In this document: in pieces, positions 1,807 to 11,024 of the stretch
How the letters are laid out: the number at the start of each line of letters is the position of its first letter
Position numbering within the stretch: the first letter of the stretch is position 1
From: Escherichia phage S143_2
Direction: 5' to 3' (one strand)
DNA: 64,000 nucleotides
Sequence record: MZ189261.1
Notes under the pieces: generated by a model
Told to the model about the DNA's origin: nothing
Database searches by the model: none
Seen by the model: the letters and a program-made list of their open reading frames with translations, nothing else
Made by a program: the position numbers and the translations under genes

Positions 1807-2265
1807 TTATAGGATGGTAGTGAGCACCTTATATAATGATTTGCCCATTACATATTCCCATTGAGAAGGTTTAATTAAAGCGAATGCATCAAATTCAGGA
1901 ATCTGTCGTCCGTCTGGGAATGTATGATAGGAATTACAAACACTGTTTCTGAATTGCTCGTGCTCTACAGGGATGGTATATAGGAACAGATGAATATTCT
2001 TATTGTCTGAGTAATGATGTTCACCTAGGTCTTTCAGGAAGGCAGGGTCATATTGTGTAAACCCAGTTTCTTCTTCGCATTCACGAATAGCGGCTTCGAT
2101 AGGAGATTCGCCGGGCTCGACACGACCTTTAGGAATATCCCACCGATGAGCTAAAGAACCTTTAGGACGAGAACCAGTTACACGCCCCATGAATAATTCT
2201 TTATCTTCGGTAAGGAAAATAATACCAGCTGATAGTTCTTTCACTTTATTTTTCTTACTCATCAT
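1807..2265 (-). CDS. nudE: Nudix hydrolase
   Basis: Nudix box GRVEPGESPIEAAIRECEEETGF; position immediately upstream of e as T4 e.1; start chosen at MSKKNK after AGGAA. Confidence 0.85.
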   Translation of the reverse strand: MMSKKNKVKELSAGIIFLTEDKELFMGRVTGSRPKGSLAHRWDIPKGRVEPGESPIEAAIRECEEETGFTQYDPAFLKDLGEHHYSDNKNIHLFLYTIPVEHEQFRNSVCNSYHTFPDGRQIPEFDAFALIKPSQWEYVMGKSLYKVLTTIL

Positions 2266-2753
2266 CTCAAATTCCTGCATTCGGTAATAAAACGTTCAAC
2301 TTCATTATTCTTGGCCTTTATCTTGTCTTTATGTTCTTGTAAACTACTTTTAATAAGATTAATAATGATGGCGGTGGTGCCGCCGCCAATGATGCCACCA
2401 ACAACACTTATGATAATAGATGCTAATAAGATAGCAATAATATCAACAAAACCTAAAGAACTCACCTTAGTACTGAAAAACCATATAGACGGTACAAATA
2501 TAATCCATCCTGTTATCCATTGGCACTTATTGAAAAACTTTTCAAGCTCAGCTTGAGTTGTTTGTATTACTTCATCGATAGGTTGATATCCATTAATGTA
2601 TCTGTTCACGATAATACCTGCTGGCTGGTCGATTTTAAATTCTTGGCAAATACGTTTCACTAAGTAGGATGGACAGGATGTCCAATCTACTGAATAGTAT
2701 GAAATACCTTCATTGCCATCGTCTATATTAGACCAATATGTTTTGTTAATCAT
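2262..2753 (-). CDS. small membrane protein (163 aa), two predicted TM helices, unknown function
   Basis: Hydrophobic stretches WITGWIIFVPSIWFF and FVDIIAILLASIIISVVGGIIGGG; C-terminal ERFITECR motif. Confidence 0.6.
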   Translation of the reverse strand: MINKTYWSNIDDGNEGISYYSVDWTSCPSYLVKRICQEFKIDQPAGIIVNRYINGYQPIDEVIQTTQAELEKFFNKCQWITGWIIFVPSIWFFSTKVSSLGFVDIIAILLASIIISVVGGIIGGGTTAIIINLIKSSLQEHKDKIKAKNNEVERFITECRNLR

Positions 2754-3439
2754 TACCAGCCTTCCATAGGGAATTCCAGATAAACTTGAGCATTGACACG
2801 AATTTCATTGGTAATCTTTTTAACTCGGTCTGTATTACGAGATACACGTCCGAACCAACGCCATCCATTACTAATTGCACGAGAACCAGTGTGCCATGTT
2901 TGCCAATCAAACTGAAGAAGAGTACGATCTGGAGCTTCCCATTTCTCTAGTTCACCTTTTTCAATTTTTTCGAGGACTTCTTTGTGCCACTGGCGATAGA
3001 TAAGTTCGCCATCAGGAATCTGACTGAACTCTGCAGTTCCTGTTGCAAAATGAGTAGGACACACATCAGCGTTAACAAGACCAAGAATATGTTCAGACAA
3101 ATAGCGAGGATTGTCATAATCAGGTTGTCCTGCAGTAATAAAGTGTTGACCGACTGGAATATCTGGGCGAGGAACATCATCATGGTGATATCCAGGAATA
3201 GCAGGATACCAACCGGGCATCAGCATGTGAACTCGTGAATCAAATACTACATCCGAGTCTTTCCAATCGTCAGGAAGATTTTGGATAAAGCTACGAGTAA
3301 TCGGGCCACCATTATCAAAAGCAAAATTCAAATCGCAGTTAAAGAACATAGGCTCGTTTTTAATCTGGTCGTTTTTAATCGCATGAGCAAAACCACCTAC
3401 TGCACGAGCTTGGCTATTAAACACTTTAGAACTATTCAT
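2753..3439 (-). CDS. hypothetical protein (228 aa), His/Asp-rich motif
   Basis: Long ORF with SD GAGGAAAA; motif GYHHDD...HF; no family recognised. Confidence 0.6.
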   Translation of the reverse strand: MNSSKVFNSQARAVGGFAHAIKNDQIKNEPMFFNCDLNFAFDNGGPITRSFIQNLPDDWKDSDVVFDSRVHMLMPGWYPAIPGYHHDDVPRPDIPVGQHFITAGQPDYDNPRYLSEHILGLVNADVCPTHFATGTAEFSQIPDGELIYRQWHKEVLEKIEKGELEKWEAPDRTLLQFDWQTWHTGSRAISNGWRWFGRVSRNTDRVKKITNEIRVNAQVYLEFPMEGW

Positions 3440-3440
3440 A

Positions 3441-3746
3441 TTATTTTCCTCGACATTCTTTAATGAAATTTTCTAGATTGGTAGATTCAATAGCTTTTTT
3501 ACGAGCTTCTGCGTGTTCTTCTTCAGACAATTTACATTTATAATTGACCCAGACATTATGGTCGAAACTAGTCGTGGCATATAATAACAATGCTCCAACG
3601 AATAGCAAAAACGGTGATAAGAATACGAAACCAGGAACACCATCCATATCGTAGGCCTTTTGTAATACTGCAACAGAAAGAGCTGCGTAAAAAGGTGATG
3701 CAAATATTGTTAAAAGACCGATTCGGTTGGTTTCTGTTAATTTCAT
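3441..3746 (-). CDS. small membrane protein (101 aa)
   Basis: Two hydrophobic helices; C-terminus ...LENFIKECRGK; SD GAGGAGAA; downstream of early-promoter cassette. Confidence 0.6.
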   Translation of the reverse strand: MKLTETNRIGLLTIFASPFYAALSVAVLQKAYDMDGVPGFVFLSPFLLFVGALLLYATTSFDHNVWVNYKCKLSEEEHAEARKKAIESTNLENFIKECRGK

Positions 3747-3764
3747 AATATTCTCCTCATGTTT

Positions 3765-3806
3765 TAATAGGACTACTATATCATAGTCCTATAATTGTGT
3801 AAACAG
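3765..3806 (-). promoter_or_regulatory. early-promoter-like cassette with embedded stem-loop (copy 1)
   Basis: Minus strand GTTTAC (-35) then inverted repeat ATAGGACTA/TAGTCCTAT over the -10 region; near-identical copies at 5059-5101 and 12714-12756. Confidence 0.6.
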
Positions 3807-3816
3807 TTTTGTGAAG

Positions 3817-4773
3817 TTATTTGAAAGGTTTTACCATATGGAAATTTTGTTTGAAACGTTTGACGTAATCATCATGTCCTAAGCTTTGGTACATACTTAC
3901 TACTTTGCTGTAGTTTTCCCAGGCATACTCACGGAACCAACCAGAGGTGATGCTTGTACAGACTTTTTCCAATGCCATCATAAAACTGGCTTCAGGGTTA
4001 ATTTTAAAGTCATTAGGAATTTGAGAACGTTCTAATGCTAGTACACATGATTCTTCGTATACACCGGCCAATTTGACCATTTCTGGTAACGATTCAAACT
4101 TCTCGCGTGAGGTCATGACTTCAGAACCGTCTTTCATATAAAATGTATACGCTGGACGGTCTGTTAGTGCAATGGCTTCATGAATAGTATCATGGTCATA
4201 CGTATAGATGTCATCTTTAAAGAACGCACTTTTAGAAGTGTCAAGAACTGGGTGAGCATAGTTCAAGGTTTCTTTCTGGCGTTTCAGCATAATTTCAGTA
4301 AGTTCATCGTTCAGTGTAACACCTTTACCACGAAGATACTGAATATGGTTCATAGTCTTTAAAAAGAATGGATTATTTTTCTTGAAACGATGAGACAACT
4401 TAATTGCAAGACATATCTCAGGAGTTGCCCAGTAAAACCCGTTCAAACGGTCTTTAGTCAAATTTTTCTTGGCGTATTTTAAAAGGTCATAAGAAGACGT
4501 GAAATCTTCAGGAGTGAGTTCACCTACTAATTCACGGACATTAGTGATTGCCGGAACAATATATGCTTCAAAATGAGTTTCGCGTCCATTATGGAAGCAT
4601 TTGAAAACTTGGACATCAGGGTTATCTTGATGAACATATACACCCATCATTTGATTTTTGAATGCATTCCAAGAACCTTGGTCTGCAATAAAGTCCCAGT
4701 CACTATTTTTGATAGCGTTAGAATCAATAAGACCATGATAGTGAAGTGCACGAGAACCAATAACTAACATCAT
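3817..4773 (-). CDS. hypothetical protein (318 aa), possible nucleotidyltransferase-fold N-terminus
   Basis: Strong SD GAGGAAAA; N-terminal LVIGSRA...SDWDFIA loosely fits the G[GS]...DxD NTase pattern; no family recognised. Confidence 0.6.
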   Translation of the reverse strand: MMLVIGSRALHYHGLIDSNAIKNSDWDFIADQGSWNAFKNQMMGVYVHQDNPDVQVFKCFHNGRETHFEAYIVPAITNVRELVGELTPEDFTSSYDLLKYAKKNLTKDRLNGFYWATPEICLAIKLSHRFKKNNPFFLKTMNHIQYLRGKGVTLNDELTEIMLKRQKETLNYAHPVLDTSKSAFFKDDIYTYDHDTIHEAIALTDRPAYTFYMKDGSEVMTSREKFESLPEMVKLAGVYEESCVLALERSQIPNDFKINPEASFMMALEKVCTSITSGWFREYAWENYSKVVSMYQSLGHDDYVKRFKQNFHMVKPFK

Positions 4774-4801
4774 AATATTTTCCTCGGATTAATTCATTAA
4801 C

Positions 4802-5053
4802 TTAAATTTCACGACATGCGATATCATATTCATCCCAGAGGTCATCGTGTGAAGCCTCTACCAATGGAACGATTGTACCATTTATGTCTTCATTATAAGG
4901 GCAAATTGTACAGTGCGCATCTTCGAATCGGATACCTTTGTGTTCAGATTTTTTATAACGCATATCGAATATCTTTGCAAATTTTTCACGAGTAATGGTT
5001 TTACCAACCACTTTGGTTCCGATACTTTCGTAATAAATCATTGTGGACTCCAT
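4802..5053 (-). CDS. hypothetical protein (79-83 aa)
   Basis: ORF downstream of early-promoter cassette; alternative start at 5041. Confidence 0.5.
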   Translation of the reverse strand: MESTMIYYESIGTKVVGKTITREKFAKIFDMRYKKSEHKGIRFEDAHCTICPYNEDINGTIVPLVEASHDDLWDEYDIACREI

Positions 5054-5058
5054 TTAAT

Positions 5059-5101
5059 TTGATAGGACTACTATAACATAGCCCTATCTTGTTGTAAACT
5101 G
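5059..5101 (-). promoter_or_regulatory. early-promoter-like cassette with stem-loop (copy 2)
   Basis: gataggactactataacatagccctat...gtaaac, about 85-90% identical to copies at 3765 and 12714. Confidence 0.6.
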
Positions 5102-5103
5102 TT

Positions 5104-5301
5104 TTAGCAAGAATAACTAGACGATACCCAGCCTTGAACAGTGATACTATTGTGGGATAATGAGATCGCGTCCTGGAGATTCAGACCTGCGTTATCTTCA
5201 ATCCATAACGTAACTTCTTCGCGTTCTTCTGTTGCAATTTGGAACAGGTTTTCCAGAGCAGCTACTGCCGTACGTACAGCACAATCTAATTCACGAGACA
5301 T
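5104..5301 (-). CDS. small protein, paralog family member (65 aa)
   Basis: C-terminus ...QGWVSSSYSC shared with the next two ORFs. Confidence 0.5.
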   Translation of the reverse strand: MSRELDCAVRTAVAALENLFQIATEEREEVTLWIEDNAGLNLQDAISLSHNSITVQGWVSSSYSC

Positions 5302-5310
5302 ATGGTTTCC

Positions 5311-5583
5311 TTAGCAAGTGTGAGAAGATGCGATCCAACCACCAGTTTCGAGGCTTAGGTTGTAGTCGTATTGGTAAACGTCGGCCCATTCAGCATAGCC
5401 GTTTTTTGTACAACGTTCAAGGTCGGCTTTAAGCTGTCCGGGTGAATGATATGTTCCACCCATACCATAAGCTGGATACAAGTCGAATGTTGTGTTTTGT
5501 TTATCAGCAATTTCTTTGGCAGCCTCAATAGCTGCATAGATTTTTGCTACAGCTTCAGCCAATTCGGTTTGTTCTTTAGACAT
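5311..5583 (-). CDS. small protein, paralog family member (90 aa)
   Basis: C-terminus ...GGWIASSHTC; stop overlaps TAAGGAA SD of next gene. Confidence 0.55.
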   Translation of the reverse strand: MSKEQTELAEAVAKIYAAIEAAKEIADKQNTTFDLYPAYGMGGTYHSPGQLKADLERCTKNGYAEWADVYQYDYNLSLETGGWIASSHTC

Positions 5584-5592
5584 AGTGATTCC

Positions 5593-5898
5593 TTAGCACA
5601 ACGCAGAAGACGAAACCCAAGCACCTTCAGTAATAACGTAACCGTTACCTTCACGCTTAACATCGCCACCATTATTTTCAATTTCATCTTTCATCCACTG
5701 GGATACGATTTCACCCTTAGGATAATAAGTACGACCGCTACCATAATCACCTACAGAAAATGATACGGCATATTGGTCTGCGATCTTTGTTGCTTCTTCT
5801 TCGATACGTTCAGCTTGATTCAGAAGTTTATAAATTGCGTCTGAAGCGGATTTGGCATCATTAAACTCTGGTACTTTAATTTCAATAATCTTACTCAT
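5593..5898 (-). CDS. small protein, paralog family member (101 aa)
   Basis: C-terminus ...GAWVSSSALC; ATGA overlap with upstream gene. Confidence 0.55.
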   Translation of the reverse strand: MSKIIEIKVPEFNDAKSASDAIYKLLNQAERIEEEATKIADQYAVSFSVGDYGSGRTYYPKGEIVSQWMKDEIENNGGDVKREGNGYVITEGAWVSSSALC

Positions 5899-6254
5899 TT
5901 TCTACATTCCTTAATAAAGTTTTCGATTGTTTCATTTTCACGTCTAGCTAGGAGTTCATTATAACTAATCATTTGAGAAGCGTAAACCTTTTTATTTTTC
6001 TTGTTATGGTTTATAAAGTCGTAGTAAAAATAGACTACAGTACAAAAGGATGCGATGGATGCAAAGGCTTGGGTATACCGTAAGTCCTGCCATTGGTCTG
6101 TGAATCCACCAGTGTTCCCTATAAATCCTAACACAACGCCGTCAATAAGAAATCCAACTAATCCAAAGGCAAATCCCATGCCAATACTCATAATAAAAAT
6201 TAGAATGTTCTCACCAAGAGAAGGCCATACGGTTAAGAGTTGAGGCTTTTGCAT
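5895..6254 (-). CDS. small polytopic membrane protein (119 aa)
   Basis: Multiple hydrophobic helices; C-terminus ...IENFIKECRK. Confidence 0.6.
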   Translation of the reverse strand: MQKPQLLTVWPSLGENILIFIMSIGMGFAFGLVGFLIDGVVLGFIGNTGGFTDQWQDLRYTQAFASIASFCTVVYFYYDFINHNKKNKKVYASQMISYNELLARRENETIENFIKECRK

Positions 6255-6628
6255 CTTATTTCCTTAACGAATTCCATAGCTTCTTCATATTCATACTTTT
6301 TAACAGCTTCATCATACTGAGCTTGGGCTTTTGCGCACTGAACTTTCCATTCTCTTAATCGGGCTCTGTGATGACGGCCTTGGTGCCAATATCCTGCCCA
6401 ATTAATAGGCATTAATAAAAACGGTACAATAAGTGGTGCGACGAACATTAATGAAAACGCTGCATCAGACGATATAACTTTATTGGAATCTAAAACAGCT
6501 CCTATAATCATAAAGATTAAAAACGCTAAAGCTAAAATAGGGCCAAATAGTACTTCATTTGGGATTAATTTACGCTTGTATTCATACGCCCAGGGCTTAC
6601 TTGGCATGTATAGGGTTGGCTTTGACAT
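6233..6628 (-). CDS. small membrane protein (about 131 aa)
   Basis: Start trimmed to ATG 6628 (track start was TTG); TM segments LFGPILALAFLIFMIIGAVL and AFSLMFVAPLIVPFLL; C-terminal EFVKEIRCK. Confidence 0.55.
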   Translation of the reverse strand: MSKPTLYMPSKPWAYEYKRKLIPNEVLFGPILALAFLIFMIIGAVLDSNKVISSDAAFSLMFVAPLIVPFLLMPINWAGYWHQGRHHRARLREWKVQCAKAQAQYDEAVKKYEYEEAMEFVKEIRCKSLNS

Positions 6629-7193
6629 ATTCTCTACATTCCATAATAAATTGCTCAAGGATTAAATTGTTAGTGAAATTAGGACTAACAACCATGGTTT
6701 CATAAAGCGCATCAATAGCACTTAAAGCATCAACTCTTTTAAGCAAAGGCTTGCCTTCATACATAGTTTCAGAATCGACGATTAAAGTGAAGTAGTATTT
6801 TTTATTATTGACCAGAACTTCTGTATCAATATAAAACATGTTAGACCTTAAAAGCTTGTCTCTAAAGCCTATGTAATCATCTGAACGTTCACTGATATAG
6901 TCCCATTCAGTGTTTAAACAACAAACAGACCACGTAGGAGCAACGAAATCAGTGAATCTAATATCATGGTCTGCAACTAGTTTAGCAATAGCTCCGATAT
7001 CATGAATCATAATACCTGGGGCTAATAAAGATTTTCGGTTATTTGCATATTCAGTTGTCTCATAAGAAGACGACCAGTACCATTTACGTCCAGTTGCAAC
7101 ATATCGTAATGAATCAACTAAAGACGTAGGTGGATTTACCTTATCTCGGAACTCTTCGAACATTGAGTCAATATCATTATTTTGGTTTCGCAT
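6597..7193 (-). CDS. hypothetical protein (about 198 aa)
   Basis: Start trimmed to ATG 7193 with AAGGAG SD; contains EQFIMECR near C-terminus. Confidence 0.55.
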   Translation of the reverse strand: MRNQNNDIDSMFEEFRDKVNPPTSLVDSLRYVATGRKWYWSSSYETTEYANNRKSLLAPGIMIHDIGAIAKLVADHDIRFTDFVAPTWSVCCLNTEWDYISERSDDYIGFRDKLLRSNMFYIDTEVLVNNKKYYFTLIVDSETMYEGKPLLKRVDALSAIDALYETMVVSPNFTNNLILEQFIMECREYVKANPIHAK

Positions 7194-7210: not shown

Positions 7211-7238
7211 CCAAAAGGAGGACCGGAGTCCTCCGTAT
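7211..7238 (-). terminator. intrinsic terminator-like hairpin (GGAGGAC..GTCCTCC + T-run on minus strand)
   Basis: Perfect 7-bp stem followed by TTTTGG on the minus strand. Confidence 0.5.
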
Positions 7239-7242
7239 TATT

Positions 7243-7836
7243 TTATTTCAAAGAGTTAATATATTCTTGTACATCAGCAGAAGTGGTTTCGACACCAGCT
7301 GGAGTACCATTGAACGTTTCAACACGAGTCAGAGTGTCTTCGATATCAACCTTAGTCAGTGCAGCGATTTCAATTACATCATCAGCCGTAGAGATACCAA
7401 GGGCATTAGCTGCTCGAGTTTCACGAATGTATTCGAGTTTGATTGCCAGATTCTGACGAGCATCGTCAAGTTCAACAACCTTACGAGCAATTTCAATTCG
7501 CATAGCGGCATACCCGTCAGCTTTTGTATTAAGTTGTTCGGCAGTTCGACGATACAGAAGACCAAGCTTGGCATGCATGGTAACATCTTGTCCTTCAGCC
7601 AGGAGCTTACGAATTTCACGTTCCTTAGAAGCGGCTTGCTTATTCTTTTCAATAACAAGTTCGCGAATACGTTTTTCTTCATTAATAGATTTAACAGAAG
7701 CCGTTTTTAGTTCTTTGATTTGGGTAATCAACTTATCTGCAGCTGCGTTATACTGTTCTTCGACAGTCAGATTTTTAGCCATAGCAGTACCCAGTTTAGT
7801 GCGGATGAATTCAACAAGTTTCTTCAGTGTGTTCAT
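7243..7836 (-). CDS. coiled-coil protein (about 197 aa), unknown function
   Basis: Start trimmed to ATG 7836 with AAGGTAA SD; heptad-rich helical sequence; own early promoter upstream. Confidence 0.55.
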
Positions 7837-7865: not shown

Positions 7866-7900
7866 TCCAACGAGAGCATTATACTCTGCTCTCAAGAGTT
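7866..7900 (-). promoter_or_regulatory. early-promoter-like element with inverted repeat GAGAGCA/TGCTCTC
   Basis: Minus strand ATTTAC -35-like box followed by a stem-loop over the -10 region. Confidence 0.4.
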
Positions 7901-7906
7901 TGTAAA

Positions 7907-10192: not shown

Positions 10193-10269
<77 letters not shown>

Positions 10270-10273
10270 TATT

Positions 10274-10348
10274 TGGCGGACGTGATAGGATTCGAACCTA
10301 TAACCAATCGCTTAACAGGCGATCGCTCTGCCATTGAGCTACACATCC
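10274..10348 (-). tRNA. tRNA-Asn (anticodon GUU), CCA encoded
   Basis: Acceptor GGATGTG/CACGTCC, anticodon stem ATCGC/GCGAT, loop CTGTTAA, T-arm ATAGG TTCGAAT CCTAT. Confidence 0.8.
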
Positions 10349-10352
10349 AAAT

Positions 10353-10439
10353 TGGTGGGGAGTGATGGAGTCGAACCACCCGAGTCGCAATGACAATGGA
10401 TTTACAGTCCACACCGCTACCTCTACGGGATAACTCCCC
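10353..10439 (-). tRNA. tRNA-Tyr (anticodon GUA), long variable arm, CCA encoded
   Basis: Acceptor GGGGAGT/ACTCCCC, anticodon loop CTGTAAA, T-loop TTCGACT. Confidence 0.75.
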
Positions 10440-10451
10440 TAATTCATAATT

Positions 10452-10526
10452 TGGTGGCCCTGGGTGGAATTGAACCACCATCTGGCGATTATGAGTCGCT
10501 TGCTTGAACCTTCCAGCTACAGGGCC
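10452..10526 (-). tRNA. tRNA with anticodon CAU (Ile lysidine-type by T4 synteny, or Met)
   Basis: Acceptor GGCCCTG/CAGGGCC, anticodon loop CTCATAA, T-arm GGTGG TTCAATT CCACC. Confidence 0.75.
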
Positions 10527-10527
10527 T

Positions 10528-10603
10528 TGGTGCTGATTGACGGAATCGAACCGCCGACCTTCTCATTACAAGTGAGTTGCTCTACCTACTGAGCTAAATC
10601 AGC
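10528..10603 (-). tRNA. tRNA-Thr (anticodon UGU), CCA encoded
   Basis: Acceptor GCTGATT/AATCAGC, D-arm GCTC AGTAGGTA GAGC, anticodon loop CTTGTAA. Confidence 0.8.
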
Positions 10604-10608
10604 AAAAC

Positions 10609-10698
10609 TGGCGGAGGCGATAGGATTTGAACCTATGAGTCGCCGGAGCGACTGCCGGTTTTCAAGACCGGTGCATTAAACCACTCTGCCACGCCTCC
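10609..10698 (-). tRNA. tRNA-Ser (anticodon UGA), long variable arm, CCA encoded
   Basis: Acceptor GGAGGCG/CGCCTCC, anticodon stem CCGGT/ACCGG, loop CTTGAAA. Confidence 0.8.
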
Positions 10699-10700
10699 AG

Positions 10701-10774
10701 TCTCCATACAAGGATTTGAACCTTGGGCCTCCTGATCCCAAATCAGGCGCTCTACCAAACTGAGCTACACGGAG
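10701..10774 (-). tRNA. tRNA-Pro (anticodon UGG), no encoded CCA
   Basis: Acceptor CTCCGTG/TATGGAG, anticodon stem CCTGA/TCAGG, loop TTTGGGA; 2-nt spacer to tRNA-Ser. Confidence 0.8.
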
Positions 10775-10784
10775 TAAATTAAAT

Positions 10785-10858
<74 letters not shown>

Positions 10859-10863
10859 AAATT

Positions 10864-10950
10864 TGGTGCGAGAAGTGGGACTCGAACCCACAAGGAAATC
10901 ATTCCGCAGCATTTTAAGTGCTGTGCCTTTACCAATTTGGCCATTCTCGC
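10864..10950 (-). tRNA. tRNA-Leu (anticodon UAA), long variable arm, CCA encoded
   Basis: Acceptor GCGAGAA/TTCTCGC, anticodon loop CTTAAAA, T-arm GTGGG TTCGAGT CCCAC. Confidence 0.8.
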
Positions 10951-10951
10951 G

Positions 10952-11024
10952 CTGGGAATAAAGGACTCGAACCTTTGCATCCTGGAATCAAAATCCAGTG
11001 CCTTACCAACTTGGCTAATTCCCA
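10952..11024 (-). tRNA. tRNA-Gln (anticodon UUG), no encoded CCA
   Basis: Acceptor TGGGAAT/ATTCCCA (U1:A72), anticodon stem CTGGA/TCCAG, loop TTTTGAT; 1-nt spacer to tRNA-Leu. Confidence 0.8.

Follow-up and report, generated by a model that had tools for sequence, protein, structure and literature searches.

Four small predicted membrane proteins of a Mosigvirus phage share a C-terminal motif with e.5 and may belong to one Psp-like module

In this study, four small ORFs (A–D) of Escherichia phage S143_2 and the soluble e.5 counterpart beside them were found to have tails ending in one motif, h-[ED]-x-F-[IV]-x-x-C-R. Since this motif is common to A–D and e.5, and the cluster adjoins the PspA-like gene e.6, the four proteins may make up a single module for membrane maintenance instead of being four unrelated orphans. 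In the preferred reading, to which a probability of about 40% is given, the tails are a shared docking helix that would connect e.5 and the membrane hairpins with a Psp-like module of the phage through contacts that we infer. The common tail motif, its restriction to the cluster, the protein-level selection on it, and the link to the e.6/e.5 pair are new here.

The phage of the 64-kb window (the whole stretch of DNA that was analysed) is a Mosigvirus, an RB69/HX01-like T-even phage. An initial annotation had placed four small membrane proteins of unknown function in the hyperplastic e-to-tRNA interval. The ORFs are present there with exactly the coordinates it gave, all on the minus strand, between lysozyme e/nudE and the tRNA cluster. 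The features of the locus are as follows:

1284-1784, lysozyme gene e
1807-2280, nudE
2262-2753, minus strand, ORF A, 163 aa, full-length counterpart of T4 e.2 (local alignment z = 16.7)
3441-3746, minus strand, ORF B, 101 aa, minimal two-TM hairpin plus tail ending in ENFIKECRGK
3803-3775, T4-type early-promoter-like site near ORF B (consensus match)
5895-6254, minus strand, ORF C, 119 aa, counterpart of T4 e.3 (z = 32.8), two TM segments, tail ending in ENFIKECRK
6233-6628, minus strand, ORF D, 131 aa, counterpart of T4 e.4 (z = 76.7), two TM segments, long basic tail
6597-7193, minus strand, counterpart of T4 e.5, 198 aa, soluble (local alignment z = 84)
7217-7234, minus strand, terminator-like GC-rich hairpin followed by a T run, between e.6 and e.5
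7243-7836, minus strand, counterpart of T4 e.6, 197 aa, all-helical
7878-7906, minus strand, T4-type early-promoter-like site upstream of e.6, TTTACA-17-TATAAT, 11/12 matches (consensus match alone)
10193-11024, cluster of ten tRNA genes

The four ORFs were confirmed as real genes, not chance ORFs. Conservation across genera was observed, and a Shine-Dalgarno-like sequence precedes each start, the weakest being that of ORF D. The start of ORF D is the ATG at 6628 (MSKPT..., like T4 e.4), not the TTG at 6658 upstream. The C/D and D/e.5 overlaps are 22 and 32 nt in this phage, and 19 and 32 nt in T4. Candidate early-promoter-like sites, identified by consensus match, lie upstream of both e.6 and ORF B, and the ATK48 record has a terminator annotated at the place equivalent to 7217-7234. 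Internal-protein-like ORFs with the N-termini MK(M/T)Y(Q/S)EF(I/L)SE were also observed nearby, at 267-527 and 1006-1302.

Similarity to T4 proteins was scored by local alignment z, and by this measure ORFs A, C, and D were identified as orthologs of T4 e.2, e.3, and e.4. Three of the four ORFs, which the initial annotation did not recognize, are thus counterparts of named T4 genes. The e.2/e.3/e.4 naming is already in place in other Mosigvirus and RB69 records, and ATK48 labels ORFs C and D 'similar to T4 e.3' and 'similar to T4 e.4'. In ORF A, a soluble N-terminal domain of ~76 aa precedes the two TM segments, and the basic tail ends in ERFITECRNLR; the protein matched phrog_2203 'membrane protein' at 6e-53 and was 84% identical to RB69 e.2. 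In T4, e.2 is a shortened form of 102 aa that has a single TM segment and has lost the tail, whereas other Tequatroviruses keep e.2 at 162 aa with the end NNFITECRKLK; across this phage and other T-evens, e.2 has 162-195 aa and the tail. ORF C matched 694 records in tblastn, with Tequatrovirus e.3 at 35-39% identity (E ~1e-15 to 1e-18). Most of the e.3 gene is naturally deleted in phage p000v, which keeps a tail remnant. ORF D matched phrog_2604 and ends in MEFVKEIRCKSLNS, a variant motif in which the Cys is displaced by two residues. ORF B matched phrog_9798; tblastn matched it to 149 phage records, every one of the Mosigvirus type and with an identity of 80% or more. Weak similarity was obtained between B and A (z = 6.7), B and C (z = 5.9), and B and phrog_2203 (E = 0.0017), and weak paralogy extends to T4 e.3 and e.4 (z = 5.4). 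ORF B is a lineage-specific gene, found only in Mosigvirus and weakly related to e.2 and e.3.

The order nudE–e.2–e.3–e.4–e.5–e.6 is common to T4 and this phage, but ~3 kb of extra genes, including ORF B, lies between e.2 and e.3 here and is not present in T4. T4 e.2/e.3/e.4 belong to PHROGs 2203/35263, 2330, and 2604 and are annotated 'conserved hypothetical, predicted membrane protein'. T4 e.3 and e.4 resemble ORFs C and D in two-TM layout, overlapping gene junctions, and tail motif (EFVIDCRKIK in e.3, KFVKESRCKSQS in e.4). In a published screen, knock-down of T4 e.2-e.6 in a laboratory host had no fitness effect (PMC11879866 supplement). A–D matched no functional family in Pfam, PHROGs, NCBIfam, or PADLOC, and no model of imm, sp, rI, or the holin, in agreement with the initial annotation. 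Since T4 e.2-e.4 are themselves uncharacterized predicted membrane proteins, the counterparts found in T4 leave its description of the function as unknown in place. Superinfection exclusion, lysis timing, and anti-defence, which it suggested, are candidate roles.

Topology was predicted from hydropathy (Kyte-Doolittle, 19-residue window) and the positive-inside rule. The hydropathy peaks reached 2.3-2.8 in each of A–D, while no segment of the neighbouring ORFs, including the soluble ones, reached 1.6. Exactly two hydrophobic stretches, free of charged residues and 19-30 residues long, were found in each protein:

ORF A, residues 77-95 and 105-134
ORF B, residues 9-29 and 36-61
ORF C, residues 16-37 and 60-78
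ORF D, residues 26-46 and 56-84

The membrane protein assignment and the strong hydrophobicity noted earlier were thus borne out in all four, although the range of one to four helices should read two in each. The central loop, of 6-22 residues, is net acidic and contains no more than one K or R. The C-terminal tail has 29-47 residues with 8-11 K+R and 5-8 D+E, consistent with the charged tails of the earlier description. An N-in/C-in hairpin is predicted from these two segments, the short acidic loop, and the many K and R residues of the tail. A–D are therefore probably two-pass inner-membrane proteins with both termini inside.

The gross architecture agrees with that of class II holins, and the endolysin gene e (1284-1784) is near the cluster. 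A–D could accordingly be holin-, pinholin-, or antiholin-like proteins tuning lysis timing. This is improbable, as no holin family was matched in Pfam or PHROGs, the promoter-like sites nearby are of the early type, and T4-like lysis proceeds by the t holin together with rI and rIII, whose genes lie outside this cluster. The existence of several paralogues, the presence of the tail on a soluble protein as well, and the T4 knock-downs without fitness effect (PMC11879866 supplement) also argue against it.

A six-frame scan of the window located the motif in five real ORFs only, within 5 kb and 1-11 residues before the stop codon. The instances, with tail HMM scores, are as follows:

2274-2291, minus strand, motif of ORF A, FITECR (16.3 bits)
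3450-3467, minus strand, motif of ORF B, FIKECR (19.1 bits)
5901-5918, minus strand, motif of ORF C, FIKECR (17.0 bits)
6254-6271, minus strand, motif of ORF D, FVKEIR then C (10.8 bits)
6633-6650, minus strand, motif of e.5, FIMECR (13.3 bits)

With the 14-position tail HMM, the five ORFs scored 10.8-19.1 bits and all other ORFs of the window at most 4.0 bits. In the whole T4 genome, only e.4, e.5, and e.3 scored (9.9-12.8 bits), with at most 4.7 bits elsewhere. The motif is restricted to the e.2-e.5 cluster in both the window and the T4 genome.

In most instances, the motif DNA, TTTATTAAGGAATGTAGAAAATG, includes or directly adjoins the translation start signals (Shine-Dalgarno sequence and start codon) of the next gene. 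AAGGAA in the motif of ORF C doubles as the Shine-Dalgarno sequence of the next gene, the motif of ORF D shares nucleotides with the start codon of ORF C and its Shine-Dalgarno sequence, and that of e.5 stops 4 nt ahead of the ORF D start. The motif could therefore be a nucleotide signal, a translation-initiation or recombination cassette of the downstream gene read through in frame, and the proteins carrying it would have nothing functional in common. The e.5 motif position, which follows the e.4 start and not the e.5 stop codon, and the tail remnant retained by p000v after deletion of the e.3 body are consistent with this.

Codon usage was analysed in 53 distinct DNA instances of the motif. 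Phe was encoded by TTT in 35 and TTC in 18, Cys by TGT in 19 and TGC in 21, the Ile/Val position by six codons, and the Arg position by all six Arg codons. Since the motif is kept through such synonymous changes at each conserved residue, amino-acid-level selection is indicated, and a nucleotide signal is largely refuted and very unlikely. The distance to the next start codon ranges from -1 to +37 nt, and in A and B the Shine-Dalgarno sequence is a separate one, downstream of the motif. In loci L012-L015, 17 codons separate the e.5-like motif from the stop and any start codon is far away, but the motif is conserved there with CGC/CGG/CGT codons. The reading frame is constant, and the hydrophobic spacing suits a helix face. 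The partial overlap with the Shine-Dalgarno sequence may explain the preference for AGR codons and for basic residues after the Cys.

Position -3 was hydrophobic in 86% of cases, position 0 was F in 100%, position +1 was I or V in 100%, position +4 was C in 72% (otherwise V, I, M, S, or A), and position +5 was R or K in 100%. This residue pattern resembles that of a single helix face. F-I-x-E can also be read in the tails of A, B, C, and e.5. The T4 internal-protein targeting sequence is MKTYQEFIAE, and the gp21 protease cuts after I-x-E. The tails could thus mimic this N-terminal capsid-targeting sequence, marking the proteins for gp21 cleavage or prohead association, and the internal-protein-like ORFs close by agree with this. 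The idea is barely credible, as other genera have the variants FIKGCR, FIKNCR, FVDQCR, FIQMCR, and FIDDCR, in which Glu is not kept and Cys-Arg, irrelevant for gp21, is. The motif is also C-terminal, on integral membrane proteins, and a cut would take off just 2-5 residues.

In e.5, the motif LEQFIMECREY lies 11 residues upstream of the stop codon, and no hydrophobic segment was found by Kyte-Doolittle hydropathy. The e.5 tail (residues 177-192) was helical in the predicted structure, a poor model (pLDDT 60) for which no fold match was obtained. e.6 is probably a divergent, sub-threshold member of the PspA/IM30/Vipp1-like group (ESCRT-III superfamily), and its likeness to PspA is suggestive. 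e.6 followed by a motif-bearing e.5-like gene was found in 11/11 lineages examined (T4, Mosigvirus, Dhakavirus, two Klebsiella/Enterobacter-type clades, Karamvirus, Biquartavirus, Pseudotevenvirus, Pectobacterium phage POP12, and two metagenomic lineages), which indicates that the e.6/e.5 gene pair is conserved. Tevenvirinae-type loci have tandem motif-bearing two-TM proteins near e.6; examples are Karamvirus AS6 with four and L016 with five. The pair is also present in Aeromonas, Cronobacter, and Pectobacterium phages with no motif-bearing two-TM protein nearby; therefore, the pair does not need the hairpins.

In the module reading, A–D would be early-expressed two-pass proteins of the inner membrane, with A, C, and D as Mosigvirus e.2, e.3, and e.4 and B as a lineage-specific relative. 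The cytoplasmic C-terminal helix of each hairpin would carry the motif hydrophobic-[E/D]-x-F-[I/V]-x-x-C-R-(basic), which most likely forms one side of an amphipathic helix used for docking. With this helix, the hairpins and e.5 may attach to the same partner in the cytoplasm; they may bind one another, or the partner may be the e.5/e.6 pair. The hairpins would then be membrane anchors or adaptors of a phage-encoded Psp-like module that may keep the inner membrane of the infected host stable or reshape it, at a stage when the stress responses of the host are shut off. The protein-protein contacts, the topology, and the physiological role are all put forward here as predictions. Several findings count against this reading. 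Unrelated genes and a distance of 3.5-5 kb separate A and B from e.6, ORF B apparently has its own promoter, the tail is lost in T4 e.2 and most of e.3 in p000v, the motif partly overlaps the downstream Shine-Dalgarno sequence, and fitness in the laboratory host was unaffected by the T4 e.2-e.6 knock-downs (PMC11879866 supplement). The e.6/e.5 pairs with no hairpin nearby and the lack of matches of A–D to the PspB, PspC, or LiaI models also weigh against it.

A somewhat unlikely alternative is that A–D are independent small effectors, such as Imm-like proteins for superinfection exclusion, or proteins that block or trigger membrane-associated defences of the host. The tail would then be inherited within a duplicated family, as a self-oligomerisation or membrane-proximal helix unconnected to e.5/e.6. 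The architecture is that of small early two-TM proteins such as T4 Imm, the cluster lies in a hyperplastic accessory region, and gene content and copy number differ among genera, as in arms-race genes. The weak paralogy given above, the dispensability of the genes in the laboratory (p000v deletion and T4 knock-downs), and the position of A and B away from e.6 fit as well. However, the motif is also on the soluble, otherwise unrelated e.5 family and on 92-135 aa proteins of L012-L015 and L020, which makes descent of a membrane-protein family alone hard to sustain. Genome-wide, the motif is confined to the e.6-linked cluster, and A–D have no similarity to known exclusion or defence-related families. 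The treatment of the four as independent orphans in the initial annotation is also disfavoured by the motif common to all four and e.5 and by the PspA-like gene upstream.

Class II holins are small, cross the membrane twice with both ends inside, and have a charged C-terminus. They and the pinholins resemble A–D in size, in the two TM segments in N-in/C-in orientation, and in the charged C-terminus, but A–D matched no holin family and have early-type promoter-like sites nearby; the t holin of T4-type lysis is unrelated to A–D. Imm is a short protein thought to span the membrane. T4 Imm and Sp, like A–D, are small early membrane-associated T-even proteins from accessory regions, but they have no sequence similarity to A–D in the libraries searched and no tail motif by the tail HMM over the whole T4 genome.

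PspB/PspC of E. coli recruit PspA, and LiaI of B. subtilis anchors LiaH. Partners of this type are small inner-membrane proteins with cytoplasmic helical regions, whose genes adjoin a PspA/IM30-type gene; they recruit the product of that gene to the membrane or regulate it there. PspA-family proteins are typically paired with small membrane proteins, including PspB, PspC, LiaI, LiaF, and PspM (PMC11237479). The likeness lies in the small two-TM proteins with a common cytoplasmic helix that are predicted here downstream of a PspA-like gene. A–D have no sequence relationship to these partners and were not matched by the PspB, PspC, or LiaI-type Pfam models. e.6 is only a sub-threshold PspA relative, and the contact within the module is predicted. 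The system is also phage-encoded, unlike Psp and Lia, and it combines several different hairpins and a soluble protein with one tail motif, an arrangement not described for Psp or Lia.

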